A stretch of 64,000 bases of DNA, taken from NCBI GenBank assembly GCA_963840455.1, contig CAWIYV010000011.1:352001-416000 (forward strand). The letters are read 5' to 3'. The notes below the pieces were generated by a model that saw only the letters and a program-made list of their open reading frames with translations, was not told where the DNA came from and ran no database searches. Of this stretch, positions 273 through 35,157 are shown in pieces; the stretch's first letter is position 1, and the number at the start of each line of letters is the position of its first letter. The stretch comes from Nitrospirota bacterium. GTDB lineage: Bacteria; Nitrospirota; UBA9217. A program made the position numbers and the translations under genes.

Positions 273-300
273 AGTTCGTTCGATCCCGGATACTGGAAGG

Positions 301-305
301 GAAGG
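301..305 (+). repeat. 5-bp target-site duplication GAAGG (left copy)
   Basis: Identical to 33515-33519 and directly abuts the terminal TGT. Confidence 0.85.
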
Positions 306-450
306 TGTCGCGAGACAATTAAGTCCCAGCAAAATCGGCTCGCAACCCATTGATATTACGATACCATAAAAAACGACAAAGAAGCTAAAGTCGTCGTTTT
401 TTCGACCGCGGAACAATTATGTCGTCGAATTTGCAGACAATTAAGTCGTC
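306..450 (+). repeat. Tn7-like left end 1 (TGT terminus, spaced TnsB sites)
   Basis: TGTCGCGAG then ACAATTAAGTC (315-325), ACAATTATGTC (413-423) and ACAATTAAGTC (437-447). Same TGT+6 nt+site layout as Tn7 ends. Confidence 0.85.
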
Positions 451-578
451 ACTAATTTCCAGCTGAATTTGAATCAATACCTCACTGGAGCAATACACTG
501 AACTGGTTGCATCCTGCACAGAACAACGAAGTAAGCGCGCGAAGCTGTATTGTCACGGAGCGTCTGCATTTCGGGATT

Positions 579-1202
579 TTACGAGCCATTTGATGCGAAG
601 CTTTTCCACTTTTCATTTTCAATTAATAAAGATCTGTGGATACGAATTGAACCGCATTCCTTTATGGATTTAAGTGTTCTCTTTACAGTCTCAAATACTG
701 CTTGTGGTAGCCACGGGCTTAGTATGATTCGGTCAATGGCCTCAATAGATATTGGGAATCGATATGTCATAGGTCCCTTCTTCTTTATTCCTAAGAAAAG
801 ACGAAACTCCTTTTCATCGCTGTATGCAGCGCGCTTTAAAAACGGAAGGGCCTTAGTTTTTGGACCAAATGATTCTAGCTCCAGAATAGTCTTGTACTGC
901 ACTTCCTCGGCACGTAACCCAGTTACCTTGCTTGTGCTCCGCAAGAGGTTATCCTTGTCAAAAACTACGCATACGCCGCCACTTCCATGAGAAAACACTC
1001 TCCAGTGATGATATGTTTCTGGTGCTTGAGCCAGACAAAGTGCATAGGTACTCGATAAGCCCTTAGCGCGTGCATATTGCTCAATGTAGTATGAATCATT
1101 TCTATCGTCCCACGAGGAAGGATTGACTAGAACAATCTCCTTGGTCTGCAATAGGTCCACGACGTAGGGCATCTCAGTATATCTTCGAAGCATCGTTTCC
1201 AC
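579..1202 (-). CDS. DUF2971-like protein
   Basis: Motifs RYT...P..WDD.ND, ALC, HWRVFS, KR.AYSDEKEFR. Confidence 0.65.
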   Translation of the reverse strand: METMLRRYTEMPYVVDLLQTKEIVLVNPSSWDDRNDSYYIEQYARAKGLSSTYALCLAQAPETYHHWRVFSHGSGGVCVVFDKDNLLRSTSKVTGLRAEEVQYKTILELESFGPKTKALPFLKRAAYSDEKEFRLFLGIKKKGPMTYRFPISIEAIDRIILSPWLPQAVFETVKRTLKSIKECGSIRIHRSLLIENEKWKSFASNGS

Positions 1203-1335
1203 CGCATAACCTCCTTATCAGCGCTGACCTCCACAATAAACTGTGCCACTTTGAGAGTCGGACCTATGGTACCCTATAATGCAGCTCACGTATTCAAGTC
1301 GATGCCATGCCAAATACCTATCACAAAACAAATCG

Positions 1336-1473
1336 TCATTTTCTTCTTTTCGCAGCGTAAATCTGGGGTAATTCGTAATCCGGATTCGGACGGACACTGT
1401 TTGCCCCTCGCCTCACATAGATCTCCTGCGTATGCACGTGATAGTAGGGTTTCTCTTTCCCTTCAGGAACTAT
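1336..1473 (-). pseudogene. C-terminal remnant of a Schlafen/AlbA_2-like protein
   Basis: Manual translation IVPEGKEKPYYHVHTQEIYVRRGANSVRP..., no start codon. Confidence 0.5.
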
Positions 1474-1666
1474 GGGCGGGGTCAGTATAGCAGAAAAACA
1501 GTGTTTATTTAAGGGGATAAAGTGGACCTGTCAAGCCAAAATGAAGATGTCTCCCACCCATGCGTTGACACGGGCTATCATGGGCTGAATTGGCTCTCCG
1601 ATATGCTCCACACCTTTCCATCCGTCCCAATGAGCAAGTGTTCCATCTAAGTCAACACCGACCCAA

Positions 1667-2074
1667 TCACCGTTTGACATTCAATCCCTCCATCCTCTCA
1701 AAGCGAGTCCTTTGATCCGGGAGACAGAACTCAGTGACTATCTCTGCTTTCATTTTCTCATCGCTGAGTATGTCCTTGCCGGCGATTACAATATATTTTC
1801 GTTTTTTTCGATCATATGCTACTCGACCTCGGAGGAGACCAGTCAATTGCTTCGGCATTCTTTTAGTCTGTTTCAATACGCTAGCAATAGAGCCCTCAAA
1901 ATGTACATTTTTCCGCGCGACATTGACGATACCATCAGCAACGGTGAAGCCAGGACAACCCTGTACATAATTGCCATATCGAATCGGAACAGGATCAGCA
2001 AACAATTCACCATTAGCAAAATAGAATATCCCGATTCGTGGAGTTCGCGCCTCGTACAGCTTTTTATGAAGCAT
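1667..2074 (-). CDS. Hypothetical protein
   Basis: 135-aa ORF co-oriented with its neighbours; RGRVAYD motif; no family recognised. Confidence 0.5.
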   Translation of the reverse strand: MLHKKLYEARTPRIGIFYFANGELFADPVPIRYGNYVQGCPGFTVADGIVNVARKNVHFEGSIASVLKQTKRMPKQLTGLLRGRVAYDRKKRKYIVIAGKDILSDEKMKAEIVTEFCLPDQRTRFERMEGLNVKR

Positions 2075-2180
2075 ATTCCGCTGATGAACCGCAGCCGCAT
2101 ACTTTTAAATTTGAATTTTATTGTTTTTTTTCATTCCGTATGCCTGCAAAATGTTCCAATGTCCAGCCTTGAATTGACAA

Positions 2181-2215
2181 GACAGGCCGGGCGCAGAATA
2201 CGTGCCCAGCCTGTC
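2181..2215 (-). terminator. GC-rich hairpin after the minus-strand cassette
   Basis: GACAGGCCGGGCGC...GTGCCCAGCCTGTC stem just past the stop at 2244. Confidence 0.4.
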
Positions 2216-2243
2216 CACCTACGAGCCGTCATTTTATCGCTAA

Positions 2244-2528
2244 TTACCGTACAAAAAAATACCACAGCGCGGCCAGTGACGTTCCGCCCGGGCCGTCAAT
2301 CGCTTTTTGAATATCTTTTAGCTCCGCTATTTTCTTACCTGTTGAATCTTTAAAATACTTACCATCAAACTCACCGATTCGCTTACCTGTCGAATCTTTT
2401 ATTTTTTCGTTATCGATGTCACCAATTCTCTTGCCGCTTTTGTCTTTGATTTTCGTTCCATCTACCTGCGCCACTCTTGCACCGGTGCGGTCTTTTAAAG
2501 TTTCACCATCAAATTTGAAATTAGCCAT
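2244..2528 (-). CDS. Small beta-repeat (beta-flower-like) protein
   Basis: Four ~17-aa repeats of the form (I/F)KDxTGKRIG-x-DG; GGAG RBS. Confidence 0.7.
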   Translation of the reverse strand: MANFKFDGETLKDRTGARVAQVDGTKIKDKSGKRIGDIDNEKIKDSTGKRIGEFDGKYFKDSTGKKIAELKDIQKAIDGPGGTSLAALWYFFVR

Positions 2529-2630
2529 GTATTTTTCTCCTTTTTATTTTCTTCATTTATTCGCTGAAGTAAAACGCTGTCGAAAGAATAGGACTGTCAT
2601 TGAACTGGTACGACCAACAACAGCCAAGCA

Positions 2631-3305
2631 TTAACTTTCGTATTCAAAAGTATATTTGTTAGCGTAGGCTACAGCAACAATACTATTATCCTTGATCAAT
2701 CGCATCGTTCTATCCTGCTGCTTACCGGAAGATGCCGGCCAAATAATCATTCTCTTTACTGTATTTCCATCCCAGCTTGTTCCCTTTACAAGCAAAGTGA
2801 TTATTTTTTCAAATAGCTCTTTATGCCCCTCAATGGCCCTTGAGAAGGCTATACATTGCTTGATCAACTCGTCCAGTTTCCGATCACTTTTCAGCTCTAT
2901 TACCCATAGTGCACCGCTTGAATCAATCGCCAGTATATCATTGACGGCTTTCTTCCCGTCTTGCTCAACTCTCAATTCTGAGGTCACGAATTTTAGGTTG
3001 AGTTTTTTCCAAAAATCTGGCGGACTACCAAATATCAGCTGGTTGATTAGCCACGCTTGCAGCTCTTTTTCCGGAGTGGCTCTTTTAGGAGAGCTCAGAT
3101 TGTCTATTTTCGCTATCTTTTCTGAGGCGTTATTGGCATTGATTCCCGTCAAACCAAGTTCTGGTGTTTTATTACTGAGTGACACCAACGATACGCCACC
3201 CAACCCTCCGCGAAAATGACATTGTTTCTGTCTTAATACTTCATGATATTGCCCGTTGAGTTTGGCTGCCAACTCTATATACTGCATCTCAGGCACATTG
3301 TTCAC
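2631..3305 (-). CDS. Putative PD-(D/E)xK nuclease
   Basis: EKELQAWL...NDILAID...VIELK restriction-endonuclease-like motif. Confidence 0.6.
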   Translation of the reverse strand: MNNVPEMQYIELAAKLNGQYHEVLRQKQCHFRGGLGGVSLVSLSNKTPELGLTGINANNASEKIAKIDNLSSPKRATPEKELQAWLINQLIFGSPPDFWKKLNLKFVTSELRVEQDGKKAVNDILAIDSSGALWVIELKSDRKLDELIKQCIAFSRAIEGHKELFEKIITLLVKGTSWDGNTVKRMIIWPASSGKQQDRTMRLIKDNSIVAVAYANKYTFEYES

Positions 3306-3337
3306 GTTAAGCGCTCCCTCCTTGAGAAGACCAGGAT

Positions 3338-4577
3338 TTAAATTATCACCACCTGATGATCTTTTATTTCAAAAACATTATTAAATAGTTTTTTAAACTG
3401 ATCGCCATGCTCCGTGTGAATCGGCACTAGTTGTTTCGGATTCATTGCTTGTGCAAACCCTCGAAGATCCTCGACCGTCGCATGGCCGCTGGTGTGCGCA
3501 TACACAAATTTGATCTGCTTGTCATGCTGATATGCTGCTATCTGTTCAGCGCCATAGCATTCATCATTCGAGCACTTCAGGTAGCCAAGCCACTGCGAAT
3601 AAATGACGTTAACAGCTTTATCGCCTTTGTACAATTCAATAATGGGGGATTTTGACATCCTGGACAGATAGAGATATTGCTCGGGATTTGCCTTAAGCTC
3701 TTCCTTTTGAATACGATACTGATAAGCCGACCGTCTGAAATCACCGAATAGTTCCAGGATTCTTCTGGAGCACTTCATCATAATTGCGATCTGCATATAC
3801 TCGGACGTCATCCCACCCGATCCCCGGCACATTGGCGGTGACAGTACGCATCCGCTCCAGTACCCAGGCCGTATAGAGGTCGACCACAAATGTCTTCTCT
3901 GCCCTTTTACATGCGCGGTACGCTGATACAATCCGGTCGATATTCTGCGACGATGAGATCAGGAACGCGATGTTCTCCTGCTTAGCGATTGTATCATAAA
4001 TCTTTTTTTCGACGGCTTCCTCTGTTGGGAATTCATCATTTGACCGCTGCATCATGGTCCCTTCCATGAACATAACGTCGATATCCTTCGGCGGCTTCTC
4101 GATCATCTTATCAAACAGAACGCGTTTTCTGCCGTGAGCGCGAAAGTCCCCACTGTAAAAAATCCTCTTGCCTTCCGCCTCGATCAGGAACGCATATGCA
4201 TCTACTGCGGAATGATCAACCAGATACGGGGTAATAGTGAAATCGCCGATTTTAAATGGCTGCCACTTTTCAAAGTGACGGAATTCGTTCGCGAGCGGTT
4301 CTTTGCCGATAAAGATTCCGACCACATCAATCAGGCTTTTGCCGAGCTTGCCGATATAGACCGGCACGCTGTGGTCAAATGAGTCAATCAGCCCGTAATG
4401 GTCCTGGTGCGGATGGCTGATGATAATCGCATCGGCCTTTATTGATGATAGATCAAGCTTCCTACTCTCTTTACTGAGCGGCAACCCGAGGTCAAGCAAT
4501 ATGGTCGTCTTGGCGGTAGACAGCTGAATGCAGGTGCCCCCGATTTCGTTACTACCCCGATGAATGGTTATGTTCAT
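3338..4577 (-). pseudogene. MBL-fold (RNase J/beta-CASP-like) hydrolase, split by one frameshift near 3755
   Basis: HPHQDH, DHS and GDFRAHG in ORF 3741..4577; HTSGHA and PIHTE in ORF 3338..3931. Removing one base restores KNPELFGDF. Confidence 0.8.
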
Positions 4578-4588
4578 GATGTTCCTTT

Positions 4589-4966
4589 TTAGCGCGGAAG
4601 TTCTTTTTTCAACCTTGCGGCATCGGCATCATATTGTCCGATCCTGGCCTGAAGTTCTTTTATCCGATCTTCCCGGCTGAGGTGTTTTGACAACCACTTC
4701 TCTTCCCGGTATTTTTCGTATTTGAGATACTCGGCCTGTTCCTGCAAATAGAGCAGCTTGCATTCACGAAAACTGAGACCAAGGATTTTTTCAATGCTGA
4801 TCGTTTCGATGTTTCTGGGATCTTCTTGTGACATGAAAGCATTATGGATATCGTAAGCGCACCCTTCACAGATTGGCGCATGAAGCAAGTCGCTCCATTC
4901 AAACACATCATCTTCATGGTCCGGACAGAGCGGACAGTGATAATTTCGGGAGACACGAATCTTCAT
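4589..4966 (-). CDS. Small CxxC...CxxC zinc-binding protein with coiled-coil tail
   Basis: CPLC and CEGC; first gene downstream of a WYL-type operator. Confidence 0.6.
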   Translation of the reverse strand: MKIRVSRNYHCPLCPDHEDDVFEWSDLLHAPICEGCAYDIHNAFMSQEDPRNIETISIEKILGLSFRECKLLYLQEQAEYLKYEKYREEKWLSKHLSREDRIKELQARIGQYDADAARLKKELPR

Positions 4967-5009
4967 AATGACCGCCGATATCTGCTTCCATTATAAATAT
5001 CACGCGTTA

Positions 5010-5027
5010 CTGACAGCACTGTGTCAG
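5010..5027. promoter_or_regulatory. Palindromic operator 1, CTGACA-N6-TGTCAG (putative WYL site)
   Basis: Perfect 6-bp arms; minus-strand TATAAT at 4990-4995, 14 nt away. Confidence 0.65.
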
Positions 5028-5034
5028 CGTTAAA

Positions 5035-6003
5035 TTATTTTTTTGAATATACCGCCAGCATAGCTCGAAGCTCGGCTTGAACTTCTTTTCTGAACGGCAG
5101 CGGGGACAATACCTCGCAGTTCGGTCCCCAGTGATAAATCCACCGCTGAATTTCTCTGGTTCCTTGCACCGTGACACGATAGATTATTGACCCGTCCTTC
5201 TTCGTCTCAACCTTTTCGGTCGGATGCCACCTTTTTCTTGTAATCCAACGTGCAACGTCTTTACTGAATCTGAGTTTGATCTCGACCGGCTCACCATGTT
5301 TATAGATATGCCAGCCTGATTGAAAATATGCATCCATAGAGAAGTCTTTGGGGATGGCATATCTTCTGTCGGTTATCTCGATGTTCTTTATACAGTCAAG
5401 CGCGAATTGCCGAACGTCGCAGTATTTATTACAATAGGCGAGAACGTACCAAATACCGGAACTGAAAAAGAGACCATACGGATCGATCCTTCTTTCGGTA
5501 ATCTTCTGACCATGCATGGCCTGATACGTTATTTCCAGGCCGACGTTCTCATCTAAGGCCCGCTGGATGGCTTCGTACCTGTCCTCAATGTCGGCGAAGT
5601 TGTCGGCGGGGTCTATATCGAACCAGTAGTGCCCTTCAATGTTCTTGATTCGCTGGCCGGTTGCCTGACCAGAACCAGCCTTGATCTTATGCATCAAGCC
5701 TTGATAAGCTTTTGAAACGCCATGCCCCAGCTTCGAGACCACGGCCTTACTCGCCAAAACGGCCCTGATTTCGTCCGGACTCAAGTCGATCTTTTTCAGT
5801 GAGTACCCAGCCGTAAACCGGTACGAACCATGCTCTTCGTCGAAATAGATCGGGTATTCACTCGGGAAACACGCCATGTCCCGGTAGATGGTCCTCTCTG
5901 CTACACCGAAATGCTTTGCAAGCCCTTTCGGTGTTAGTGCTTTCCCGCTATCGATCAACCCGAGAATTTCAACCATCCGATTGATCCGTTTGACATCGGC
6001 CAT
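5035..6003 (-). CDS. HTH-WYL-WCX transcriptional regulator
   Basis: LAKHFGVAERTIYRD helix-turn-helix; ERRIDPYGL...WYVLAYC; WGPNCEVLSP. Start taken at ATG 6003 behind a GGAGG RBS. Confidence 0.9.
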   Translation of the reverse strand: MADVKRINRMVEILGLIDSGKALTPKGLAKHFGVAERTIYRDMACFPSEYPIYFDEEHGSYRFTAGYSLKKIDLSPDEIRAVLASKAVVSKLGHGVSKAYQGLMHKIKAGSGQATGQRIKNIEGHYWFDIDPADNFADIEDRYEAIQRALDENVGLEITYQAMHGQKITERRIDPYGLFFSSGIWYVLAYCNKYCDVRQFALDCIKNIEITDRRYAIPKDFSMDAYFQSGWHIYKHGEPVEIKLRFSKDVARWITRKRWHPTEKVETKKDGSIIYRVTVQGTREIQRWIYHWGPNCEVLSPLPFRKEVQAELRAMLAVYSKK

Positions 6004-6053
6004 ACATGGCCTCCCCGCTTGATAAGTTACCAGACTATAGCATAGTCCTATCA

Positions 6054-6071
6054 CTGACGCAATGGTGTCAG
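6054..6071. promoter_or_regulatory. Palindromic operator 2, CTGACG-N6-TGTCAG
   Basis: Between the WYL gene and the divergent ORF; minus-strand TATAGT at 6034-6039, again 14 nt away. Confidence 0.65.
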
Positions 6072-6115
6072 TAGGCAAATGATAGAGTGGTCAATAACAT
6101 CTGGAGGGAATACAC

Positions 6116-7021
6116 GTGGCTGACATTTCAGAGAGCGTTGCTGAGGCCATTCTCAACAACATAAGGGAGCAGCACCCGGAACATTTGCGCGCTCATGCCG
6201 CCGTGACGATCTCGTTTATCAAAGACGTGAACACGGCATGGAATTCAGCTATCGGCATTAACAGTGAAAATGATATAAGCGACCACTTTGCCAAGGCAAT
6301 ATATGAAAGGCTTGCCGAGGATGTTATAGCAAAACCCATGGAGGCTGGAACAATCGATCTTATTTGCGAATTGTACGATGAGATCGGATTCGAGCATTTT
6401 CTCAGGGAAGGTGCGGATACTGAATGCTCCACATCGTGGCAGTTCAATAACCGCGCAAATTCGAGGTCAGCATTAGGCCGTTATTTGGAAGCGCTTGAAG
6501 ACTATAACCTTGCATGTGAAATTGTGCCCAACTGCCTGATGCACCTGCTTAACCACGCGAAGACGTTCATTGCTCTCGACATGCGTGAACTGGCCATCCG
6601 GGACGCGACGCGCGCATATGCGCAAACAGAGAATAAGCAATTCGGAACTAAAGATGATTTTATGACTATAGACGATTTCGTTGAGATTGCAGGGCTGATG
6701 ATTAATTGCGGGCGTGAAGAAAAAGCGCTGGAAGCGCTCTTGAAATTTACCCTGGCGTTCAAACGTTATCTGCCTTTCTTATCCAGGATAGATGATGACG
6801 GCTTTTGTTCAATGAGTTTAGACGGCCACTCATCACAGGTTAACATAGGATTTTTCCTCGATCAGGCTCTTGCCGTATTTCATTCCATCGGAGAAGGAAA
6901 TAACTGCGTCGTCCAGACGAGGCTAGATGTACTTGCAGGGCTATTGGATTTAACAGACAAGATCGGGGATACGAACGCCTCTCCCCCGGCAGGAGCCGGG
7001 GTTTCTTACAGAATACTATGA
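6116..7021 (+). CDS. Hypothetical helical protein with a TPR-like segment
   Basis: FNNRANSRSALGRYLEALEDYNLA resembles a TPR; GGAGG RBS before GTG. Confidence 0.55.
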   Translation: MADISESVAEAILNNIREQHPEHLRAHAAVTISFIKDVNTAWNSAIGINSENDISDHFAKAIYERLAEDVIAKPMEAGTIDLICELYDEIGFEHFLREGADTECSTSWQFNNRANSRSALGRYLEALEDYNLACEIVPNCLMHLLNHAKTFIALDMRELAIRDATRAYAQTENKQFGTKDDFMTIDDFVEIAGLMINCGREEKALEALLKFTLAFKRYLPFLSRIDDDGFCSMSLDGHSSQVNIGFFLDQALAVFHSIGEGNNCVVQTRLDVLAGLLDLTDKIGDTNASPPAGAGVSYRIL

Positions 7022-7582: not shown

Positions 7583-7691
7583 TGTAACAACTTTATTCCC
7601 TGCTAACTTTCCGGAAACGCAAAAATGTAACAACTATATTCCCTCTGCAACAACTTAGTTCCCAAAGTAACAACTTTATTCCCTGCAAACA
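7583..7691 (-). repeat. Orphan Tn7-like right end of a second TnsB-site family
   Basis: Four copies of AACAACT(T/A)(T/A)(A/G)TTCCC ending ...CCCTGCAAACA at 7691. The reverse strand reads TGTTTGCAG-GGAATAAAGTTG. Confidence 0.8.
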
Positions 7692-7697
7692 GCAAGG

Positions 7698-8189: not shown

Positions 8190-8208
8190 GCTGCTTGTTT
8201 TTATTACC

Positions 8209-10100: not shown

Positions 10101-10205
10101 TATCGGGAAGACAATTAAGTCCTTACGAAACCAGTCCGTAACCCATCGATTTTACTATAGCCGAAAAATCACCCGAAAAGATAAGGTTCTTACATTTTCG
10201 CCCTA
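10101..10205 (+). repeat. Tn7-like left end 3 (truncated copy of left end 2)
   Basis: TATCGGGAAG-ACAATTAAGTCCTTACGAAACCAGTCCGTAACCC...GTTCTTACATTTTCG closely matches 7698-7800. Confidence 0.75.
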
Positions 10206-10761
10206 CAACCATCTGTCATAGCCGGCCGCCTTTGCTATGGCCAAGTGGGTCTGATCATACCAAGCATGGGCCGATTGAACTAGTCCGCTTATCAACAGAA
10301 GGAAGATAAACAAGATGGCAAGTAGTGATTTCATTAGTGGATTATATCAGGCATTCTGGCTTATGGAAAGTAGAGATATCCCCCGTTGATTTCACGATGA
10401 AAAGTTCTTTGTGTAAACTACAACTTGTGATATAGTCGTCCAATCAAAGAGTACTTCCTATACTCCTCATAGTTGCATTTCCTTGAAACATGCTCGGTTA
10501 CATTCTGTATTTGATGGAATACCATTAAAATACCCCATTGCGTTCGTTTCTATTTTGGGTTGACACACCCATTCGCCGTTACTTGACATGCCCTGATATA
10601 GGCATACATTTGCAGCACACTTAAGTGCATTAACGTTCTGCTAAAATCGTTTTATCGGCAAACTGCTGTAATTGAACTTTTTAATAGCTAGTTAGCTAGG
10701 AAGACTACTGCTCAACGTCAACCAATAGTCCGAACGGTCAAGGCTGTTTGACTTTTTATAA

Positions 10762-22487: not shown

Positions 22488-22690
22488 AATTACATACATA
22501 ATTTACATATAATACATACTATTTGTCAACATAAAACATATTTACATGCTTATTAAATTATAACATATTGATTTAATTATTATTTTCTTTATTCTGATTG
22601 CTTATGAAGGACTGATCTTTGACGTTTAAAAGTGTATGAAATCCAATAATAGGTGTTTAATACATATTGTTTACATAGATATTTACACAG
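22488..22690. promoter_or_regulatory. Divergent promoter region with repeated ACATA...ATTTACA motifs
   Basis: Similar motifs at ~22490-22509, ~22529-22547 and ~22671-22689; minus-strand TTGACA at 22524-22529. Confidence 0.5.
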
Positions 22691-22700
22691 AAGAGAAACT

Positions 22701-23453: not shown

Positions 23454-23617
23454 TCCCCTGTTCAGATGAGGACGAATGAGTGTATTCCCAATCCTCTTTC
23501 CTCTGATCCCTCCTGCCACCGGAGTACTGTCGCAAATGAGCTCTCAAGAAAAGACTCAAGAAGGTGCAACTTTTCTTGTTTTTTTTACCAGCCTAGTTTA
23601 TCCTCGACTTGAGTAGT

Positions 23618-23737
23618 ATGAACAATTTTTCTGAACAAGTAAGCTTCATCTGGTTCGTGGCTAATCTTATCAGAGGACTATACAAACCGAATCAGTACAG
23701 GGATGCAAAAGAAGAGATAGTCGAGACACAATTCTAG
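23618..23737 (+). pseudogene. N-terminal remnant of a second type I HsdM
   Basis: Manual translation MNNFSEQVSFIWFVANLIRGLYKPNQY resembles HsdM N-termini. Confidence 0.55.
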
Positions 23738-23767
23738 CCTATTAGCAACAATGTGATTTGAGGCTCT

Positions 23768-26476: not shown

Positions 26477-26478
26477 CA

Positions 26479-27933
26479 ATGAGTGATATCGTCAACAAGC
26501 TCTGGGGTTTCTGCCATACACTGCGCCACGATGGCATCGATTACGGCGATTACATCGAACAGCTTACTTACCTGTTGTTCCTGAAAATGGCTGATGAGCG
26601 CGATATTAACCTTTCCAAAACAGTCTGGATCAATGAAAAGGGTAAAAAAGTCATAACTGATTGCGGATGGCCGGCCTTGCGAGATAAGTCCGGAACAGCC
26701 TTGACCGATCATTTTGTCGATGTTCTCCGTGCTCTTGGTAAGCAGACAGGAATGCTGGGCGACATTTTCAGTCAATCCATGTCTCGTTTCAATAATCCAG
26801 TAAATCTCAAAAAATTGATCGGAATGATCGATGATGAAGAATGGTCTTCCATGGATGTGGACATAAAAGGGGCAGCGTTCGAGGGCCTTCTTGAAAGAGC
26901 GGCAAGCGAGGGAAAGAAGGGGGCGGGACAATACTTTACGCCACGTGTCCTCATTCAATCAATCGTACGTGTCATGAAGCCCGATCCGCGAGGAAAGTCG
27001 GATTTCAAAATCAGTGATCCTGCCTGTGGAACTGGAGGATTTCTCGTCGTTTCCTATGAGTGGCTTGTCGAAGCGTCTAAGGGTGTTTTTGATCGGAGCG
27101 AGGCGAAGCGCATACGAAGCAAAACGTACTTCGGCCAGGACCTTGTGCCTCGTCCCCGCAGACTTGCACTAATGAATCTCTTTCTACACGGAGTCGAGCC
27201 ACACATCTATCTGGGTGATACGATCTATACACCACCTCGCGCTGAGCGATATGACGTGATCCTCACAAATCCGCCCTTCGGCACCAAAGGTGCGAACCAG
27301 GCACCTGACAGAGAAGACTTCACCATTGAAACGAGTAACAAGCAGCTCAACTTCGTTCAACATGTCATGAACATTCTTAAACCCGGTGGTCGCGCAGCAA
27401 TAGTGTTGCCGGACAACTGTCTCTTTGAAGATAAAGCGGGCGAGGTCTTTGAAATCTTGATGAAGGACTGCAACTTACACACGGTCCTGCGTCTGCCGCG
27501 TGGTACGTTCACACCTTACAGCCAGGGAGTGAAGGCAAACGTCATCTTCTTCCAAAAAGGATTACCCACGGAAGATACCTGGATATTTGACGCTCGCTCC
27601 AATGTGCCAGGCATTACAAAGAAAGACCGTCCGCTTTCGCCACTTCACTTTGCGGAGTTTGAGAAGTGCTATGGCAAAGACCCAAATGGACGGAGTAAAA
27701 GGATCGACCTCGGGGAAGAAGGTCGGTTCCGGAAGTTCTCTATATATGACATCAAAAAGCGTGATTACAAGCTCGATGTTACCTGGCTTAAGGATGAATC
27801 GCTTGACGACAGTGACGAATTGCCAGAGCCTCAGGAATTGGCGGAAGAAGCAATAACGGAACTTGAAGCGATTGTTGACGATTTGCGAGTAATCGTGACG
27901 TTGACGGAAAAGGAAGAGGGCGTGAAGAAATGA
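26479..27933 (+). CDS. hsdM: Type I RM methyltransferase subunit
   Basis: GAGQYFTPR, DPACGTGGF, NPPF. Confidence 0.95.
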   Translation: MSDIVNKLWGFCHTLRHDGIDYGDYIEQLTYLLFLKMADERDINLSKTVWINEKGKKVITDCGWPALRDKSGTALTDHFVDVLRALGKQTGMLGDIFSQSMSRFNNPVNLKKLIGMIDDEEWSSMDVDIKGAAFEGLLERAASEGKKGAGQYFTPRVLIQSIVRVMKPDPRGKSDFKISDPACGTGGFLVVSYEWLVEASKGVFDRSEAKRIRSKTYFGQDLVPRPRRLALMNLFLHGVEPHIYLGDTIYTPPRAERYDVILTNPPFGTKGANQAPDREDFTIETSNKQLNFVQHVMNILKPGGRAAIVLPDNCLFEDKAGEVFEILMKDCNLHTVLRLPRGTFTPYSQGVKANVIFFQKGLPTEDTWIFDARSNVPGITKKDRPLSPLHFAEFEKCYGKDPNGRSKRIDLGEEGRFRKFSIYDIKKRDYKLDVTWLKDESLDDSDELPEPQELAEEAITELEAIVDDLRVIVTLTEKEEGVKK

Positions 27934-29312
27934 TTGATGATCTTCCTAAAGGCTGGGCTAGCGCCAAAATCGAGCAGCTTTTCGATTTCAAATACGGCAA
28001 GGGGCTCCCGCAGGAGAAACGTAATATAAATGGTGCGGTCAAAGTGTTTGGCTCCAATGGCGTAGTGGGTGTTCACACACACGCGGTTACGAATGGGCCA
28101 ACGATAATCGTTGGCCGGAAGGGCTCGGTGGGCGAAGTTCACTTGTCATCTGAAAAGTGCTGGCCTATCGATACTACATATTATATTGATGCATTTCCTG
28201 CAGAAATGTCTCCAAATTATTGGACACTTTTCCTTAGGTCACTTCGACTCGGTCAGCAGGAAAAGTCTTCTGCAATCCCTGGTATTAGCCGTAGTGACAT
28301 TTATGACATCTATGTGCCGATTCCCCCGCTGAGTGAGCAGCGTCGTATCGAGGCAAAACTGGCGGAGATTCTTGAAAAAGGCGGTGACTGCCAAAAACGG
28401 CTGGAAAAAATTCCGGCAATTCTTAAACGCTTTCGCAAATCTGTCCTTGCCTCTGCTTGCTCGGGCCGTCTTACGGCAGATTGGCGAGATAAGAATCCGT
28501 ACGTAAAGCCATACTCAATTAAGGGACAGCAAGATAGTTCGGAGGTACGCGACGACGAGGCGATCGATCCCTCAAGTTGGCGGATAACGCAACTTGGCAT
28601 TTTGACCACACTGATAACGAGTGGTTCTCGCGGGTGGGCGAAGTACTATTCTAAATCGGGTTCTATGTTCATTCGAGCGCAGAACATAAACTCCGACGTT
28701 CTCAATTTGGATGATATTGCCTTTGTTAAGCTACCTGCCCGCACAGAAGGATTGAGGACTAAAATCCAAAAGCACGATCTCCTCGTTACGATTAGTGGCG
28801 CTAACGTCACCAAGTCCGCACTCGTTGAAGAGTCGCCAAAGGATGCTTACGTGAGCCAACATGTGGCTTTAGTTCGGCTTTCCGATGTGCGTCTGAGCAA
28901 GCTCATCTATTTTTCGATCATTAGCCCTGCACACGGAAGGAAACAGCTACTTGCTGCTACTTATGGGCAAGGTAAACCCGGACTTAATTTAGACAACATT
29001 CGTGAAATGATTGTTTCAATTCCTCCTCTCAATGAACAACAGGAAATCGTCCGACGAGTAAACGAAATGTTTGCGTTAGCCGACCAAATCGAGGCCCGCT
29101 ATGCAAAGTCCAAAGCATATGTGGACAAAATCTCTCAATCAATTCTCGCGAAAGCTTTTCGTGGTGAACTTGTACCGCAGGATCCGAATGATGAACCCGC
29201 ACATATTCTGCTGCAACGCATTCATACAATAAAAAATAGCCTTCATAACCTCTCTCCAAAGCGATCTGCGAAAAAAGGCCGTAAGCCAGCCAAGCGTTTC
29301 CAGATTTCTTAA
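27930..29312 (+). CDS. hsdS: Type I RM specificity subunit
   Basis: Two target-recognition domains with PPLSEQRRI and PPLNEQQEIV repeats; AFRGELVPQDP. Confidence 0.95.
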   Translation: MIDDLPKGWASAKIEQLFDFKYGKGLPQEKRNINGAVKVFGSNGVVGVHTHAVTNGPTIIVGRKGSVGEVHLSSEKCWPIDTTYYIDAFPAEMSPNYWTLFLRSLRLGQQEKSSAIPGISRSDIYDIYVPIPPLSEQRRIEAKLAEILEKGGDCQKRLEKIPAILKRFRKSVLASACSGRLTADWRDKNPYVKPYSIKGQQDSSEVRDDEAIDPSSWRITQLGILTTLITSGSRGWAKYYSKSGSMFIRAQNINSDVLNLDDIAFVKLPARTEGLRTKIQKHDLLVTISGANVTKSALVEESPKDAYVSQHVALVRLSDVRLSKLIYFSIISPAHGRKQLLAATYGQGKPGLNLDNIREMIVSIPPLNEQQEIVRRVNEMFALADQIEARYAKSKAYVDKISQSILAKAFRGELVPQDPNDEPAHILLQRIHTIKNSLHNLSPKRSAKKGRKPAKRFQIS

Positions 29313-29659
29313 TATTATTACCGGCCCCCCCCCAAACGCCACAATCACAAGAGCATCAACAATATCTAATAACAGGAATGGCCACCATGTTGTTGATTAA
29401 TATCATTTTTAACCCTTATTTTCAGCCAGTTACAAACTAAAACATTTTTCAACCGCGCCATTCAAGGATGAAATCCATGCATACCCACGAAGATCCCGTG
29501 AATACTGACTAAATATGGAGTCAAAATACACTTGACTCCACTATATATAGTGATATATTCAGCGTGATGGATTTATTCTTGTGGTTTGATCATTTTCAGC
29601 GCTGAACACGAACATTGGATAATAGCTGCAAAGGCAGACCCTATATATCACGATATGCC

Positions 29660-29739
29660 TTACGCATGCTGCGTAAAAAGTCCTTGACTCGAGGGACTTG
29701 AACTGGTATTGTAAGGATGGGATTACGCATATTGCGTAA
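29660..29739 (+). promoter_or_regulatory. Sigma70 promoter bracketed by two TTACGCA-N3-TGCGTAA operators
   Basis: Palindromes at 29660-29676 and 29723-29739; TTGACT (29684), 17 nt spacer, TATTGT (29707). Confidence 0.75.
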
Positions 29740-29752
29740 AAGGAGGTGTGCG

Positions 29753-30127
29753 ATGAAGTTCGGTCAGCTCTTGAAAAAGGCCCGGACTGGGGAGAAAAAA
29801 ACATTAAGGGAGGTTGCTGCCGCATCTGGACTTTCAATCAGTTTGGTATCAGACATAGAGCATGGCAGAAGAAGCGTATCCTCGTTGGAGGTTGTTGGGA
29901 AGATCGAAAAGTTCCTGAATATAACAGATGGATCTTTAGCAAAAGCAGCTCAGAAGGAAAAGAGTCTCGATGTGCCACCCGACGCAAAGGAGCTATTTTG
30001 GAAACGGGGACCTGAACTGAGCATGGCACTCTTGAGAGCATCAACCGAACTTTCAGAAGAGGCGATACACAAGCTTATCGATGAAATGCAGAAGAATGCT
30101 CAGCAGGCACAGGCAGAGGAGGATTAG
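29753..30127 (+). CDS. Xre-family HTH repressor (ImmR/CapH-like)
   Basis: FGQLLKKAR...TLREVA..SGLSISLVSDIEHGRR; AGGAGG RBS. Confidence 0.85.
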   Translation: MKFGQLLKKARTGEKKTLREVAAASGLSISLVSDIEHGRRSVSSLEVVGKIEKFLNITDGSLAKAAQKEKSLDVPPDAKELFWKRGPELSMALLRASTELSEEAIHKLIDEMQKNAQQAQAEED

Positions 30128-30130
30128 TTG

Positions 30131-30727
30131 ATGTCGGTCTCGGAACTTGCTTTCCCCGCGATGCGTGGATCTCGAATAGACAACCTTGCATTGGATCTCA
30201 TAAGAACGATCCAGCCGGACGTCCTCGCGGGAAAGTGTTTTTTTGACGTAGAGCGATTCGTGGATGTGCACCTTGAGGAGATGACAGGCATTACACCAGA
30301 CTATAGGCGTGGACTTCCCGATGGTATTTATGGATACACGCACACAGCGGAAAATAGCATGGTGATCAATTCAGACCTTCTCGAAAACCCCTTCGGCGAC
30401 AACGAACGATTTTATCGATCAACAGTAGCGCATGAGGTAGGACACTGCATCTTACACGTTCCAATATTACGACGGCAAAAGAGAGATAAGATTTTTACAG
30501 AGAACAAGAAAGAGGAAAAGGTTGCACTCTACCGTAAGACCCATTTTCCACTGTATCAGAATCCTGAGTGGCAGGCATGGCGCTTTGCGGGGGCTCTATT
30601 AATGCCCGAGGTTGTAATTAGATCATTGCGCGGCCAGGGAGCGAGTATACAGGAAGTCGCAACTCATTTTAATGTGAACGGGAGTTTTGTGGAGAGCAGA
30701 ATGAAAGCGTTAAAAATGACCACATAA
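30131..30727 (+). CDS. ImmA/IrrE-family metallopeptidase (CapP-like)
   Basis: RSTVAHEVGH (HExxH); EWQA..FAGALLMP. Confidence 0.9.
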   Translation: MSVSELAFPAMRGSRIDNLALDLIRTIQPDVLAGKCFFDVERFVDVHLEEMTGITPDYRRGLPDGIYGYTHTAENSMVINSDLLENPFGDNERFYRSTVAHEVGHCILHVPILRRQKRDKIFTENKKEEKVALYRKTHFPLYQNPEWQAWRFAGALLMPEVVIRSLRGQGASIQEVATHFNVNGSFVESRMKALKMTT

Positions 30728-31081
30728 AAAAAGCGTCAAGCCGTTGTTAGAGCAACGCTTGACGCTACCCCCTCTAGGGAACGAGGGGTGTCTTGACCCG
30801 GGTGGGCCAGACCACATAAGAAAGATACCATTCCTTTCGCCCACCTGTCAAGACCAATAATCTGTTTCCCAGAAAGCTGGTGATGGCCTTATGGCCAAAT
30901 CCGGATCCACGGTCGTATTCCGTCCGTGGATAATCGCTAAGGGTAGGCGCTACGCGTCCGCCTGCAGCAAGGGCTTTTCCCATTCAGGTACAGAAGAATC
31001 CTGATGGGACGGGGGAGGTCTGTGTCTCCCCCTATTCCAAGAAAGCTCGGCATTGGGAATGCTGAGCGATAGGAGATCACT

Positions 31082-31261
31082 ATGGCTAAAAATCCGCCCT
31101 ATGGAGACGGACACCGGCACGGAGCAGTAACAGGAAGGTCTCAAACGCTGAACACAAAGACCAATCTTTGGACGAAGCGCGATACTGAGACAGGTCGTTT
31201 TATCAACCAGAAGTCTGACCCGAAACCCTTCAAAGGGGTTCGGAAAGAAGGAGGCAAATAA
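31082..31261 (+). CDS. Small basic protein (59 aa; not in the ORF track)
   Basis: AGGAG RBS; MAKNPPYGDGHRHGAVTGRSQ...WTKRDTETGRF...KPFKGVRKE; stop 1 nt before the next ATG. Confidence 0.75.
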   Translation: MAKNPPYGDGHRHGAVTGRSQTLNTKTNLWTKRDTETGRFINQKSDPKPFKGVRKEGGK

Positions 31262-31262
31262 C

Positions 31263-31916
31263 ATGGAAAGGGACAACAAGCCCGGGCACAATCACGAGGA
31301 CCACATCACTATCATCGTGAATCAGGTCTCTCACCACATTTCGAGCAGCACCGTAACAGCAGCCTATCTCCGCGAACTTGCGGGAGCCGGAGCTGACTAT
31401 GAGGTATGGAAGGTAATCAAATCTCCTGATCCGGAAGGACAGCTGCCTGTCGATGATATGCAGGTCAAGGACAGCATTGAGGTAAAGAGCGGGGACAAGT
31501 TCAGGGTCGTCCCTCCGGGAACCTTCGGAACGGTGGCTACATTGCCGGCTGGCCAGCTTTCTCGGGAGTTGGAGCAACTCCATGAACAGGGCTGTGAAAC
31601 CGAAGTGCATGAAGACAGCAGCCTCACGATTGTCATATTCAAAAAGTTCCCTCTTCCTAAGGGGTATAACATGGAGGCAACCGATGTTCTTATAAAGGTT
31701 CCTTTGTCATACCCGAATGGACAACTGGACATGTTCTGGACCGAACCGAACCTTCGACTCGCAAGCGCCAATGGCCAGACAGCGACATCGGTCGAGCAGA
31801 TCCTTGGCAGACAATGGTTGCGGTTCTCGTGGCATCCCCAGAAATGGAACCCGGGCAGGGACAACATACTGACCTTCGTTGAGTTCATCAACAGGAGGCT
31901 CGCCCAACTGAAATGA
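31263..31916 (+). CDS. Ubiquitin-like (multi-ubiquitin type) domain fused to a prokaryotic E2-like domain
   Basis: ITIIVN...LRELAG...IEVKSGDKFRVVPPGTFG, then FPLPKGYN...VP.SYP..LDMFW..P...WLRFSWH...WNPG.D. Confidence 0.8.
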   Translation: MERDNKPGHNHEDHITIIVNQVSHHISSSTVTAAYLRELAGAGADYEVWKVIKSPDPEGQLPVDDMQVKDSIEVKSGDKFRVVPPGTFGTVATLPAGQLSRELEQLHEQGCETEVHEDSSLTIVIFKKFPLPKGYNMEATDVLIKVPLSYPNGQLDMFWTEPNLRLASANGQTATSVEQILGRQWLRFSWHPQKWNPGRDNILTFVEFINRRLAQLK

Positions 31917-33313
31917 GCAAAGAATATACCATACGAATCTCTGAACAAGATCTCAAGCTGTGCAGGTCGGCCGTCATGGCCGACCTGCCTAAAGAGAGCG
32001 CAGTATTTCTCCTGGCGGGCAGAAAAACGATAGGCGATCGAGAGGAACTTCTGATGCGGCGTGTCGTGGTAATCCCGAAATCCGAGTACCGCATTCAGAG
32101 CGATGTCCACCTCGATATTTCACCCCAAGCTATCAATGGCCTGGTAGCCCTATGTGAACAAAACGGCCTCGGCGCGATACTCTGTCACAGCCACCCGACA
32201 GACTCGCCGTACTCGCCGTCAGATGACAAAGGCGAAAAACGCATCGCCGAGACGATCTGGAAGTTTGTGCCAGAAGCACCTGTCGGGTCCTTGTTGATTT
32301 CTCCCGGTCAATACCGCGCCCGCATTTGGCTTCCTGGCCGAGCCCATTCAGCTGTCCAAGGCATTACCGTTGTTGGCAGACACATTCACCGGATCGGTCT
32401 CAACGGAAGCAGCAAAACAATGTCCTTCAATCGCGGTCTTTATGACAGACAGGTCCTCGCATTCGGAGACCAGGGACAGGAGGCAGTGTCGAAGACGAAG
32501 ATTGCCATTGTCGGCATGGGAGGTACTGGTTCGCCAACGGCAGAGCAGGCCGTCAGACTCGGCGTTAAAGATATCCTTCTCATCGATCCCGATACTCTCA
32601 GTGATTCGAATATAACCCGGGTATACGGCAGCTTTTACCGGGACATCACTCGACCGTGGTGGAAAAAGCTGCTGCCCATCAACGGCAAGCAGTCCAAGGT
32701 AGATATGATAGCTCGCCACCTCAGAAGTATTGCACCGGACGCAAAAATAGTCGCTTTGCAGGAGAACATCGTTACATCTTCTGCCGCCCGGGCATTACTA
32801 GACAGAGATGTCATATTCTGCTGCACAGATGAGCACTGGGGCAGATCGGTCGTGAACCAGATCGCGCATCAGTACATGATTCCTGTCATCAACATAGGAG
32901 TTCAGATCGACTCAAAGAACGGCGTGATACAAGGGGCCTCTGGATCCATCCACATTATCCGGCCGGATGCTCCTTGCCTCTGGTGCTATGAATTCCTCAG
33001 CGGTAAGCGTATTCGGGCAGAGAGCCTTCCGCCGGAACAAAGAGATTCTGAGCTGAGGGAAGGCTACGTAGAGAACATTGACGCGAAGGCGCCATCTGTT
33101 GTGTCCTTGACAACAACGCTTTCCGGTCATGCAGTAACAGCCTTCCTGCAGCTTGTCACTGATTTTAGGGGAGCGGCTGGAGGCTTTCACAGTCTGAACT
33201 ACAGCATTATGGAAGGAATCGTCAGGCGATGTTCAACAACGACTGATGAGCACTGCATCTGTAAATCGGCCAAAGGTTATGGAGACATGAAAGCCCTCCC
33301 CACTGTGGCATAA
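31913..33313 (+). CDS. JAB/MPN metallopeptidase + ThiF/E1 adenylation fusion
   Basis: E...HSHP...SPSD; YDRQ, GMGGTGS, IDPD....SN..R, CTD, CLWC and C-x-C zinc ligands. Confidence 0.9.
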   Translation: MSKEYTIRISEQDLKLCRSAVMADLPKESAVFLLAGRKTIGDREELLMRRVVVIPKSEYRIQSDVHLDISPQAINGLVALCEQNGLGAILCHSHPTDSPYSPSDDKGEKRIAETIWKFVPEAPVGSLLISPGQYRARIWLPGRAHSAVQGITVVGRHIHRIGLNGSSKTMSFNRGLYDRQVLAFGDQGQEAVSKTKIAIVGMGGTGSPTAEQAVRLGVKDILLIDPDTLSDSNITRVYGSFYRDITRPWWKKLLPINGKQSKVDMIARHLRSIAPDAKIVALQENIVTSSAARALLDRDVIFCCTDEHWGRSVVNQIAHQYMIPVINIGVQIDSKNGVIQGASGSIHIIRPDAPCLWCYEFLSGKRIRAESLPPEQRDSELREGYVENIDAKAPSVVSLTTTLSGHAVTAFLQLVTDFRGAAGGFHSLNYSIMEGIVRRCSTTTDEHCICKSAKGYGDMKALPTVA

Positions 33314-33350
33314 GCAGCATACTCATGCTATGCCATTTCAAGGCAAAGAG

Positions 33351-33380
33351 AGGGAGGGGCGTTGACGCCTCTCCCTTTTT
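33351..33380 (+). terminator. Intrinsic terminator
   Basis: AGGGAGGGGCGT-TG-ACGCCTCTCCCT followed by a T run. Confidence 0.7.
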
Positions 33381-33410
33381 ATTACCAGAACTCAACTAAG
33401 CAAAACATAG

Positions 33411-33514
33411 GAACTCAATTGTCTATGCCAATATAATCGGATACCGTCTTTAGACGACTTAATTGTTTAACGATGACTTAATTGTATAAGTTACGACTTA
33501 ATTGTTTCTTTATA
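33411..33514 (-). repeat. Tn7-like right end (TAT terminus)
   Basis: GACTTAATTGT at 33456, 33475 and 33495, plus a degenerate copy near 33412; reverse strand begins TATAAAGAA-ACAATTAAGTC. Confidence 0.9.
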
Positions 33515-33519
33515 GAAGG
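33515..33519 (+). repeat. 5-bp target-site duplication GAAGG (right copy)
   Basis: Matches 301-305. Confidence 0.85.
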
Positions 33520-33525
33520 CGTATC

Positions 33526-35157
33526 TCACATCTCGCACACCAGGTCCTCGATCTCCTTCGAGAAGGTCTCATAGTTCGGAGTGTAATCGATGGGACACTC
33601 GATGACGACGACCTTGTGGAGGTCGAAGGCCTGCTTGAGCACCACGGCGAGGTCGTCCCCCTTCTTCACGGTCATGCCGACCGCCCCGTGGCTCTCGGCG
33701 AACCGGGCGAAATCAGGATTGGTATAGTCCAGCCCGAAGCTCCGGAACCCCATGTTCTCCTGCTTCCACTTGATGAACCCGAAGGCGTTGTCGTTCAGGA
33801 TCAGCACGACGACCGGGATGTTCAACCGCACCGCGGTCTCGAGCTCCTGGGCGTTCATCATGAATCCGCCGTCGCCCACCACGGCAAGCACCCTGCGTTC
33901 GGGATGGACCAGCTTGGCGGCAAGGGCCGCAGGCAGGCCCGCACCCATGGTCGCGAGGGCGTTGTCGAGGATGAAGGTGTTCGGCTTGTAGGTGCGGTAG
34001 AGCCGCGAGAACCAGAGTTTGTAGATGCCGTTGTCCAGGGTGACGATGTCGTCCTCGCCGAGGGCCTTCCGCACGTGGCAGACGATCTCCTGCGGCTGGG
34101 GCGGGAAGGTCGTCTCGCAGGTCGCCGCGAGCTTCTCGGTCAGGAACAACCGGAGGTCCGCGAACAGCGTGTCGTCCCTCCGCGTCACCTTCGAGGCGAG
34201 CTGCCGGAGCGAGACCGAGACATCGCCGACCACTTCGATGGCGGGGTCGTAGTAGCGGTCCACATCAGCCTCGACGAAATCGATATGGATGATCTTCTTG
34301 TCAAGTCCCGGGTTCCAGATGAAGGGCGGGTACTCCACGATGCTGTACCCCACGGTGATGATCACATCTGCGCGGTCGATGCCGCAGTTCACGTAGTCCC
34401 GCTTGTGGATGCCCGTTGCGTAGAGGCTGTAAGAAGACTCGTCGGAGAGCACGCCCTTCCCCATCTGCGTATGCACCACGTAGATGCCCGTCCGCTCCAC
34501 GAATTCGCGAAGCTCCTTCCAGATGAGCTTCCGGTTCGCCCCGGCGGATAGGATGAGCAGTGGATGGCGCGACGCGTTGATGAGCTCCGCTGCACCTTCG
34601 ATCGTCTTGGTGTCAGGGTCCGGCCTGCGGCTGTGGCCCGGCTTCTGGACCTGTGCGTCCGTGCTGCTTCCGGCCACGTCCTCGGGAAGTTCGATGTGGA
34701 CCGCGCCCGGCCGCTCTGCCTGGGCGTGCTTGAAGGCGTTCCGGAGCACCGTCGGAATGGTCCCCGGGTCGATGATCGACGTTGCATACTTCGTGACGGG
34801 CCGCATCAGGCTGACCACGTCGATAAGCTGGAAGCAGGCCTGCCAGTTGTCGCGCACCGCCTTCTGGCCGGTGATGGCGATGAGCGGCGCGCCGATGAGC
34901 TGGGCGTGGGCGATGCCCGTCACCAGGTTCGTGGCGCCCGGCCCGAGCGTGGAAAAGCAGACGCCCGCCTTGCCGGTGAGCCGGCCGTAGGTGGCGGCCA
35001 TGAACGCCGCCGCCTGCTCGTGGCGCGTGACGACGAGCTTGATGTGCGACGTGCGGAGCGACTCGAGGAAATCGAGGTTCTCCTCGCCCGGCAGGCCGAA
35101 GATGTACTCGACGCCCTCCTCTTCCAGCTGTCTGACGAACAGGTCCGATGCTTTCAT
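33526..35157 (-). CDS. ThDP-dependent acetolactate-synthase-like enzyme, possibly 2-oxoglutarate decarboxylase
   Basis: GVEYIFGLPGEENL, RHEQ, GDGG...NDN; lies directly after SSADH, citrate synthase and aconitase. Confidence 0.85.
   Translation of the reverse strand: MKASDLFVRQLEEEGVEYIFGLPGEENLDFLESLRTSHIKLVVTRHEQAAAFMAATYGRLTGKAGVCFSTLGPGATNLVTGIAHAQLIGAPLIAITGQKAVRDNWQACFQLIDVVSLMRPVTKYATSIIDPGTIPTVLRNAFKHAQAERPGAVHIELPEDVAGSSTDAQVQKPGHSRRPDPDTKTIEGAAELINASRHPLLILSAGANRKLIWKELREFVERTGIYVVHTQMGKGVLSDESSYSLYATGIHKRDYVNCGIDRADVIITVGYSIVEYPPFIWNPGLDKKIIHIDFVEADVDRYYDPAIEVVGDVSVSLRQLASKVTRRDDTLFADLRLFLTEKLAATCETTFPPQPQEIVCHVRKALGEDDIVTLDNGIYKLWFSRLYRTYKPNTFILDNALATMGAGLPAALAAKLVHPERRVLAVVGDGGFMMNAQELETAVRLNIPVVVLILNDNAFGFIKWKQENMGFRSFGLDYTNPDFARFAESHGAVGMTVKKGDDLAVVLKQAFDLHKVVVIECPIDYTPNYETFSKEIEDLVCEM

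Follow-up and report, generated by a model that had tools for sequence, protein, structure and literature searches.

The window analysed here is a stretch of 64,000 nucleotides from a Nitrospirota bacterium (GTDB lineage UBA9217; assembly GCA_963840455.1, contig CAWIYV010000011.1, positions 352,001 to 416,000). A low-GC island occupies window positions 306-33514, between a lipoprotein-like gene and an acetolactate synthase (ALS)-like gene for a thiamine diphosphate (ThDP) enzyme. This ~33-kb island is a stack of the remains of Tn7-like transposons, one of which still has its transposition genes aboard. Its inventory consists of one tnsA-tnsB-tnsC-tnsD-tnsD operon, three left ends (L1, L2 and L3), one cognate right end and, from a related subfamily, one orphan right end (Table 1). 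The GC content is ~0.40-0.53 within the island (~300 to 33500) and ~0.58-0.65 outside it, a difference of ~15 points from the host. The 3' end of the ALS-like gene is very probably the attachment (att) site of a clade of Tn7-like elements with the TnsB core ACAAT(T/A)AAGT, which would be directed there by a TnsD-type selector.

The product of the ALS-like gene (555 aa) contains all three TPP-enzyme domains (Pfam) and scores 799.5 bits against the NCBIfam model NF006187, 'acetolactate synthase large subunit' (cutoff 509). A second match elsewhere in the same genome shows 33% identity. The neighbour of the right end is thus an NF006187 ThDP enzyme and not glmS, the gene at the canonical attTn7. 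The last 81 nt of the gene show codon-pattern conservation over 45 genomes. The lipoprotein-like gene on the other side of the island had no Pfam or NCBIfam match.

Multi-site arrays are present at the ends. Exactly seven copies of the 11-mer ACAATTAAGTC are present in the window, always within an end (315, 437, 7829, 10111 and 33456/33475/33495). L1 terminates in TGT; the right terminus of the window and the termini of L2 and L3 read TAT, and the same right end terminates in TGT in two other genomes of the order (G003 and G047). The spacing of the L1 sites (98/24 nt) recurs in the left end of a mini-element in genome G046, and the L2 region is 70% identical to 302-483. The orphan right end was recognized by 17-nt repeats at 7584-7683 (four observed, 0.05 expected). 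Within the window, neither a left end matching it nor a second tns gene set or tnsA fragment was found.

The pentamer GAAGG flanks the island on both sides (301-305 and 33515-33519), as the original prediction, made from the sequence of the window, had proposed, and the GCAAGG that it placed between an internal right end and an internal left end is present at 7692-7697. The prediction had also put the tnsA-proximal end 6 bp from the stop codon. The duplicated pentamer does lie 6 bp from the stop codon; for the last base of the element, the distance is 11 nt (GAAGG plus CGTATC). It is indeed the right end that adjoins the gene, but tnsA itself is 11 kb off.

Empty alleles of the kind expected from the prediction were found in relatives. 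In an 867-nt contig of metagenome run X7, positions 33515-33555 of the window are matched without a difference, and the 30 letters preceding 33515 correspond to window positions 266-295 with one mismatch. This contig is an empty site, reading lipoprotein flank, a single GAAGG, CGTATC and the stop codon. In G001, a genome of the same genus, the ThDP gene is followed ~0.5 kb on by the lipoprotein gene, with a DUF559-like fragment and no Tn7 ends between them. The gene-lipoprotein adjacency is therefore seen in both. The site is empty in three same-genus genomes (G001, G005 and G002).

Table 1 Features of the island and its host flanks (window coordinates)
Feature	Position	Strand	Basis or remark
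Lipoprotein-like gene, left host flank	3..275	-	Open reading frame (ORF); G001 ORF 75% identical, downstream of ThDP gene
Extra GAAGG copy	296..300		Direct reading; the X7 empty allele has a single GAAGG
Left copy of the 5-bp target duplication GAAGG	301..305		Directly before the left terminus TGT at 306
Left end L1	306..460	+	Sequence; terminus TGT at 306; TnsB sites 315, 413 (one mismatch), 437
Distal-segment cargo: DUF2971/PDC-S31, beta-flower protein, split metallo-beta-lactamase (MBL)-fold hydrolase, WYL regulator, tetratricopeptide repeat protein	579..7021		Domain searches
Orphan right end, related subfamily	7584..7691	+	Sequence; four 17-nt repeats, ends ...ACA at 7691
Junction GCAAGG, orphan right end to L2	7692..7697		Sequence; CAAGG = GAAGG at 4/5 positions
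Left end L2	7698..7877	+	Sequence; terminus TAT; sites 7707, 7829
Left end L3, truncated	10101..10207	+	86% identical to 7703-7803
tnsD copy 2, full length, 580 aa	14199..15941	-	Pfam TnsD 3.4e-67 plus TniQ
tnsD copy 1	15943..17640	-	ORF 16171-17640 (489 aa) stops at in-frame TGA; homology to copy 2 runs on
tnsC (AAA+ / TniB-like)	17651..19201	-	Pfam AAA_22 8.5e-18, TniB 1e-12
tnsB transposase	19201..21156	-	Pfam Mu-transpos_C
tnsA	21388..22221	-	PF08722/PF08721
Small ORF upstream of tnsA, resembles TnsB residues 219-277	22269..22436	-	E 0.003
Cargo, tnsA to right end: helix-turn-helix (HTH) protein, type I restriction-modification, CapH/CapP-like pair, Prok-E2_E, ThiF/E1	22653..33313	+	Pfam, NCBIfam
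Right end, three close-packed TnsB sites (33456, 33475, 33495)	33412..33514	-	Sequence; terminus TAT on element strand; last base 33514
Right copy of GAAGG	33515..33519		Directly after the right terminus
ALS-like ThDP gene, intact, right host flank; 3' end is the predicted att site	33526..35193	-	Pfam, NCBIfam
Predicted TnsD-binding stretch, if spacing is Tn7-like	33541..33576	-	Assumed Tn7 geometry and conserved coding stretch

Recurrent ends after the orthologous stop codon

The sequence after the stop codon of the orthologous gene was surveyed in 64 species genomes of the order and family of the window (19 genera). An orthologue was found at E <= 1e-100 in 53 of them, and at least 45 nt after the stop codon could be read in 48, the window included; G065, in which the contig ends at the stop codon, and genomes with N-terminal gene fragments only were left out. 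When the gene strand was scanned within 60 nt after the stop codon for the TnsB-site motif A[ACT][ACG]A[TA][TA]AAGT[CT], 10 of the 48 genomes contained it, beginning 13-24 nt downstream. All 10 motifs are in right-end orientation and none is reversed. The motif starts at exactly 20 nt in four genomes, which places the terminus 11 nt past the stop codon. As a control, the motif was found six times in 151,339 nt of other fetched sequence (both strands), so that ~0.06 chance matches are expected in the 48 windows.

Five more genomes carry weaker traces, a by-eye and subjective class. Three of them (G004, G075 and G047) keep the terminal 9-mer and a partial site, G041 has a degenerate trace, and in G007 the right end lies 44 nt past the stop codon. 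The occupied genomes span four genera, or six when the by-eye traces are counted. The spacers between terminus and stop codon are 9-15 nt long, mostly 11 (mostly 9-12), and their sequences are unrelated across genomes. At least four end subfamilies occupy the position, judged by their termini (TGTGGAGAA, TATCGGGAA, TGTCCGCAA and TGTCAATAA), and G007 and the orphan right end of the window add more types. Insertion at this position is therefore recurrent, always in one orientation and at a constant distance from the end of a conserved gene; together with five of 58 metagenome loci described below, this supports the prediction that the 3' end of the gene serves as an att site, and the at least two end families that had been expected there have become at least four.

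The right end of the window (69 nt) was also compared with the 64 genomes using BLAST. Six matched, of which four, including the window genome, have the match directly after this gene at 88-100% identity. G007 contains a right end plus three tandem left ends 4.1, 5.7 and 7.7 kb downstream of the gene, an array that is a second stack at this gene. A 3.7-kb mini-element in G046 has both ends and no tns genes; it sits between a sigma-54-dependent regulator gene (L041, 14741-16231) and the ALS-like gene. TnsB was found in one of the 64 genomes only, that of the window, and the other occupants observed are therefore all relics or non-autonomous elements. No tns genes were detected by tblastn with the Tns proteins of the window in stretches of up to 20 kb downstream of the orthologue in 15 relatives (26 loci in all), and six more stretches gave the same result. 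In a sample of the phylum, the exact double-site pattern was present in 4 of 401 genomes, all of the window's own family.

The region after this gene has other tenants as well, and it might be a general hotspot for mobile DNA, such as a terminator region or an integrase site, in which Tn7-like ends are one kind of occupant and TnsD chooses nothing. The DUF559-like fragment of G001, a toxin-antitoxin pair with repeats in G005 and a gene resembling those of insertion sequences (IS), which cuts the right end of G003, are in line with this. We nevertheless regard a general hotspot as highly improbable. The distance from the stop codon stays mostly at 9-12 nt, and at most 15, despite the variable spacer sequence, the orientation is uniform in all 10 genomes, the island contains no integrase (Pfam), and a 5-bp duplication is typical of Tn7. 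In addition, the same end family is equally precise after other stop codons (an ammonium transporter gene, amtB, and a sigma-54 regulator gene), which is the pattern of a swapped selector.

Another possibility is that all occupied sites go back to a single old insertion in the order's ancestor that later decayed and was lost in places, without any repeated targeting. It agrees with the finding of only relics without tns genes outside the window, and the genomes are kin. Several features argue instead for independent insertions: the spacers are unrelated, at least four subfamilies with different termini occupy the site in four to six genera, and genomes of the same genus are empty. Occupation is patchy within genera (three occupied and three empty in genus g1), and the empty allele of X7 belongs to a near-identical strain. 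Moreover, the right ends of G046 and G003 are 95-98% identical to that of the window and stand beside the same gene, while the genes themselves are only 67-85% identical. The GC content of the island, ~15 points under that of the host, also speaks against an origin in the ancestor of the order, which we hold to be very unlikely.

Relic right ends (G003/L004, L120, G047, G075 and G004) are often cut inside a TnsB site, just past ACAAT(T)(A), and not between sites. An IS-like HTH gene follows the cut in G003. These intra-site cuts may be due to chance or to a bias of motif recognition.

When metagenomes were scanned for two sites spaced as in the right ends, 58 loci were obtained. Five of them (L088, L116, L120, L125 and L138) have the end, in right-end orientation, 10-12 nt past the stop codon of an orthologue with 65-72% identity; one junction sequence is common to L116 and L125, which leaves four distinct sequences among the five. 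Of the other loci, 16 adjoin the 3' end of an ammonium transporter gene and four that of a sigma-54-dependent regulator gene, with one each at glmS and dnaN; 31 were left unclassified. The ammonium transporter gene is thus the commonest recognizable neighbour of this end family (16 of 58). At these amtB loci (within L085-L136, e.g. L087, L110 and L135), the terminus TGATAGGAA lies 1-7 nt past the stop codon, and the product ends in TPEREPNW. At the four regulator loci (L099, L134, L117 and L137), the ends adjoin the 3' end of an NtrC-like sigma-54 regulator gene, ~10-11 nt past the stop codon. In L117, the end abutting the regulator is the tnsD-proximal (left) end of a complete element with tnsABC and two tnsD genes. 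Nothing related was found in the literature searched, judged by title, on Tn7-like elements linked to an ammonium transporter.

A scan of genome contigs for TnsB gave only four loci (L028-L031), none beside the ThDP gene and none with an Amt or NtrC-like gene adjacent. At one of them (L030), a TnsB relative with 42% identity lies behind the glmS ribozyme and gene, the ribozyme being the sole Rfam match over the four loci. The clade therefore behaves like Tn7 with its targets swapped. In G042 (contig C6; L040, ~1310-1700), two tandem end arrays, with CATAGTTTGG-type and then ACAATTAAGT-type sites, lie downstream of tRNA-Asp, a further case of stacking at an att site within this bacterial family. 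Judged from these neighbours, one end/TnsB family is common to elements with differing targets, the pattern that swapped TnsD selectors would be predicted to leave. Homologous elements next to unrelated genes had been named as evidence that would count against the prediction, and here, as with the gene-lipoprotein adjacency, the outcome favours the prediction: the same gene recurs in the 10 genomes and five metagenome loci given above. The same end family also occurs at amtB, the sigma-54 regulator, glmS, tRNA-Asp and a major facilitator superfamily (MFS) gene. Since it does so, the site appears to be specific to the selector and not to the end family.

Possible stacking in place or import as a composite

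In the explanation that we favour, a TnsD-type selector would bind the final ~50 nt of the coding sequence, which are conserved, and recruit TnsC and TnsAB, and insertion would occur ~11 nt past the stop codon in non-conserved DNA, duplicating 5 bp and leaving the right end towards the gene. Directly observed are the anatomy, the offset, the orientation, the duplication, the empty allele and the repeated occupation of this position in other genomes; binding by a TnsD belongs to the proposed part. The stretch predicted to be bound (33541-33576) was placed on the assumption of a Tn7-like spacing, and TnsD copy 2 would be the intact candidate for the selector responsible. As to the order of insertion, we infer from the arrangement of the ends that repeated use of the site would have left a distal remnant without transposition genes, bounded by L1 and the orphan right end (7691), and a proximal segment with tnsABC and the two tnsD genes, between L2/L3 and the cognate right end (33514).

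Several observations weigh against this explanation. The window contains three copies of GAAGG where two are predicted, and the internal junction is 6 nt long with one mismatch. The doubled GAAGG on the left could be the footprint of a former insertion and its loss, or the result of slippage. TnsA is encoded 11 kb away from the right end. Matching flanking pentamers are lacking in the G046 mini-element, and none were found when they were sought for the elements of G016 and G007. Two of the six right-end matches in the order lie elsewhere, in G061 beside the MFS gene (on its 5' side) and in G042 behind tRNA-Asp, and the nearest TnsB relatives (L028 and L029) are not adjacent to this gene. No autonomous relative was found beside the gene elsewhere, and the ALS-adjacent loci outside the window have no tns genes. 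The genomes surveyed belong to a single order and are not independent of each other. Finally, L1 is nearer in site flavour to the proximal right end than L2 and L3 are, a resemblance equally compatible with a single composite and with a stack.

Such a composite would mean that only one insertion took place at this gene. A 33.2-kb unit would have moved by means of L1 and the right end at 33514, and the internal ends would be fossils of a stack that had formed at a like site in an earlier host and were carried along as cargo. Composite import is favoured by the resemblance of L1 to the proximal right end, which have a GTCGTC-type site flank in common, versus GTCCTTAC in L2 and L3. GAAGG flanks precisely the outer pair of ends, and the internal pentamer CAAGG differs from it, as expected from the site of another host. 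Furthermore, four metagenome runs compared against 33100-34100 show no part of the island beside a near-identical gene (none covers 33100-33507); contigs of this kind cannot show absence.

However, the outer GAAGG is equally predicted by stacking in place, and the flanks do not discriminate. The right end of G061 mixes both site flavours, and therefore the two flavours probably belong to one TnsB specificity. Stacking in place is favoured because the internal pentamer matches at four of five positions and because G007 contains a stack of left ends in place. Neither model accounts exactly for the third GAAGG copy or for the internal junction of 6 nt. We consider import as a single composite possible but somewhat doubtful, and the conclusion on the att site is identical under either reading.

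Between about a fifth and a third of the order's genomes have right-end relics beside this gene, despite the lack of a remaining transposase. It is conceivable, though in our view unlikely, that relic right ends which retain two to four intact TnsB sites serve as decoys for target immunity and bar cognate elements, or that TnsD copy 1 is a newly evolved selector for this gene and copy 2 serves another site. If the decoys were real, only elements with diverged TnsB/end specificities could land, which would explain the mixed end subfamilies in the stacks.

Transposition genes, cargo and state of the copy

With TnsA, a TnsB of the DDE transposase type, TnsC and TniQ-domain selectors, as predicted from their domains, the element is a Tn7-like transposon. 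The Pfam match of TnsB is weak (PF09299, Mu transposase C-terminal domain, only), and the protein is 58-59% identical to TnsB of L028 and L029, two loci with tnsA, tnsC and tnsD. Both tnsD genes encode PF06527 plus PF15978. The nearest relatives of TnsD copy 2 are 58-60% identical and 573-589 aa long, and its residues 15-307 match the solved Tn7 TnsD structure 8GLU (E 1e-18). The nearest relative of TnsD copy 1 in a collection of 5.8 billion proteins is just 37% identical. There is no further TnsD in the remainder of the genome, and neither TnsD copy 2 nor the end pattern had a match in viral contigs. An ORF at the same position before tnsA as the small ORF of the window is present in L028 (1714-1968) and L029 (8666-8938).

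Among the cargo of the distal segment, the DUF2971 protein (579-1202) matches the PADLOC candidate defence family PDC-S31 (7.1e-17). The type I restriction-modification genes between tnsA and the right end (23871-29312) include intact hsdM and hsdS and an hsdR in at least two fragments (24396-25592 and 26015-26476). Beside the right end (29717-33313), a CapH-like HTH protein and a CapP-like M78 peptidase are followed by Prok-E2_E and a ThiF/E1 protein with an extra N-terminal region. From its domains, this set of genes resembles a defence module of regulated ubiquitin-like conjugation, although none of the PADLOC system models matches it in full.

The right terminus in the window reads TATAAAGAA, and the same end is TGTGGAGAA in G003 and TATGGAGAA in G046 and L120. 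In tnsD copy 1, the TGA aligns with the Trp of the IDW motif of copy 2, and in-frame similarity persists for ~75 codons beyond it (15943-16173). The TGA and the TAT right terminus are all G-to-A changes on the strand concerned. The copy in the window is probably decaying and no longer mobile, because its right terminus is TAT, tnsD copy 1 is cut short by a premature stop codon and part of the cargo is disrupted (hsdR and the MBL-fold hydrolase gene).

Significance and comparison with known Tn7-like systems

Programmable DNA-insertion tools are built on Tn7-like elements, and every natural pair of TnsD and att site is an example of how a protein selector can be re-aimed. The present case provides a target gene absent from the literature searched and one complete gene set. 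A natural series of occupied and empty sites over six genera fixes the insertion point within a few bases. As one TnsB/end family is associated with several gene-end targets (this gene, amtB, a sigma-54 regulator gene and glmS), the clade is suited to mapping the region of TnsD that determines specificity. For annotation, the att site explains a recurrent variable island downstream of this gene.

The original prediction did not recognize the gene among described Tn7 targets, and acetolactate synthase was likewise not found as a target in the main-text literature searched. The words 'acetolactate' and 'thiamine' are absent from the main texts of Faure et al. 2023 (PMC10293859), Benler et al. 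2021 and a 2025 archaeal Tn7 preprint, and none of the publications listed in full-text searches, judged by title or by occurrence of the enzyme's name, linked Tn7-like elements to acetolactate synthase; supplementary tables, which may name flanking genes, were outside the scope of the search. As far as this literature goes, the target is new and the kind of element known.

Two tandem selector genes after tnsC are also a feature of the dual tniQ/tnsD elements in the text of Faure et al. 2023, where 1,048 dual loci compare with 2,905 single-gene loci (PMC10293859). One of the two proteins is usually much smaller in the elements described there, whereas both were TnsD-sized in the window, where the shorter one is short owing to a premature stop. 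Tandem Tn7-like islands, such as the Acinetobacter resistance islands outlined in PMC11014353, similarly consist of related elements and remnants head to tail at one att site. They differ from the island of the window in host, target gene and cargo, which is of defence type here and includes no resistance genes.

Tn7 itself differs in its target, the 3' end of glmS, in place of which an ALS-like ThDP enzyme gene is used here. The window element lacks tnsE and has a second tnsD instead, carries 11 kb of cargo between the right end and tnsA, and has TAT as its right terminus. On the other hand, the gene order tnsA-tnsB-tnsC-tnsD, the asymmetric ends with several TnsB sites and the 5-bp duplication are like those of Tn7, and the N-terminal half of TnsD copy 2 matches the solved Tn7 TnsD (8GLU). 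As in Tn7, insertion takes place just past the stop codon of a conserved gene, which is left intact, with the right end towards the gene.

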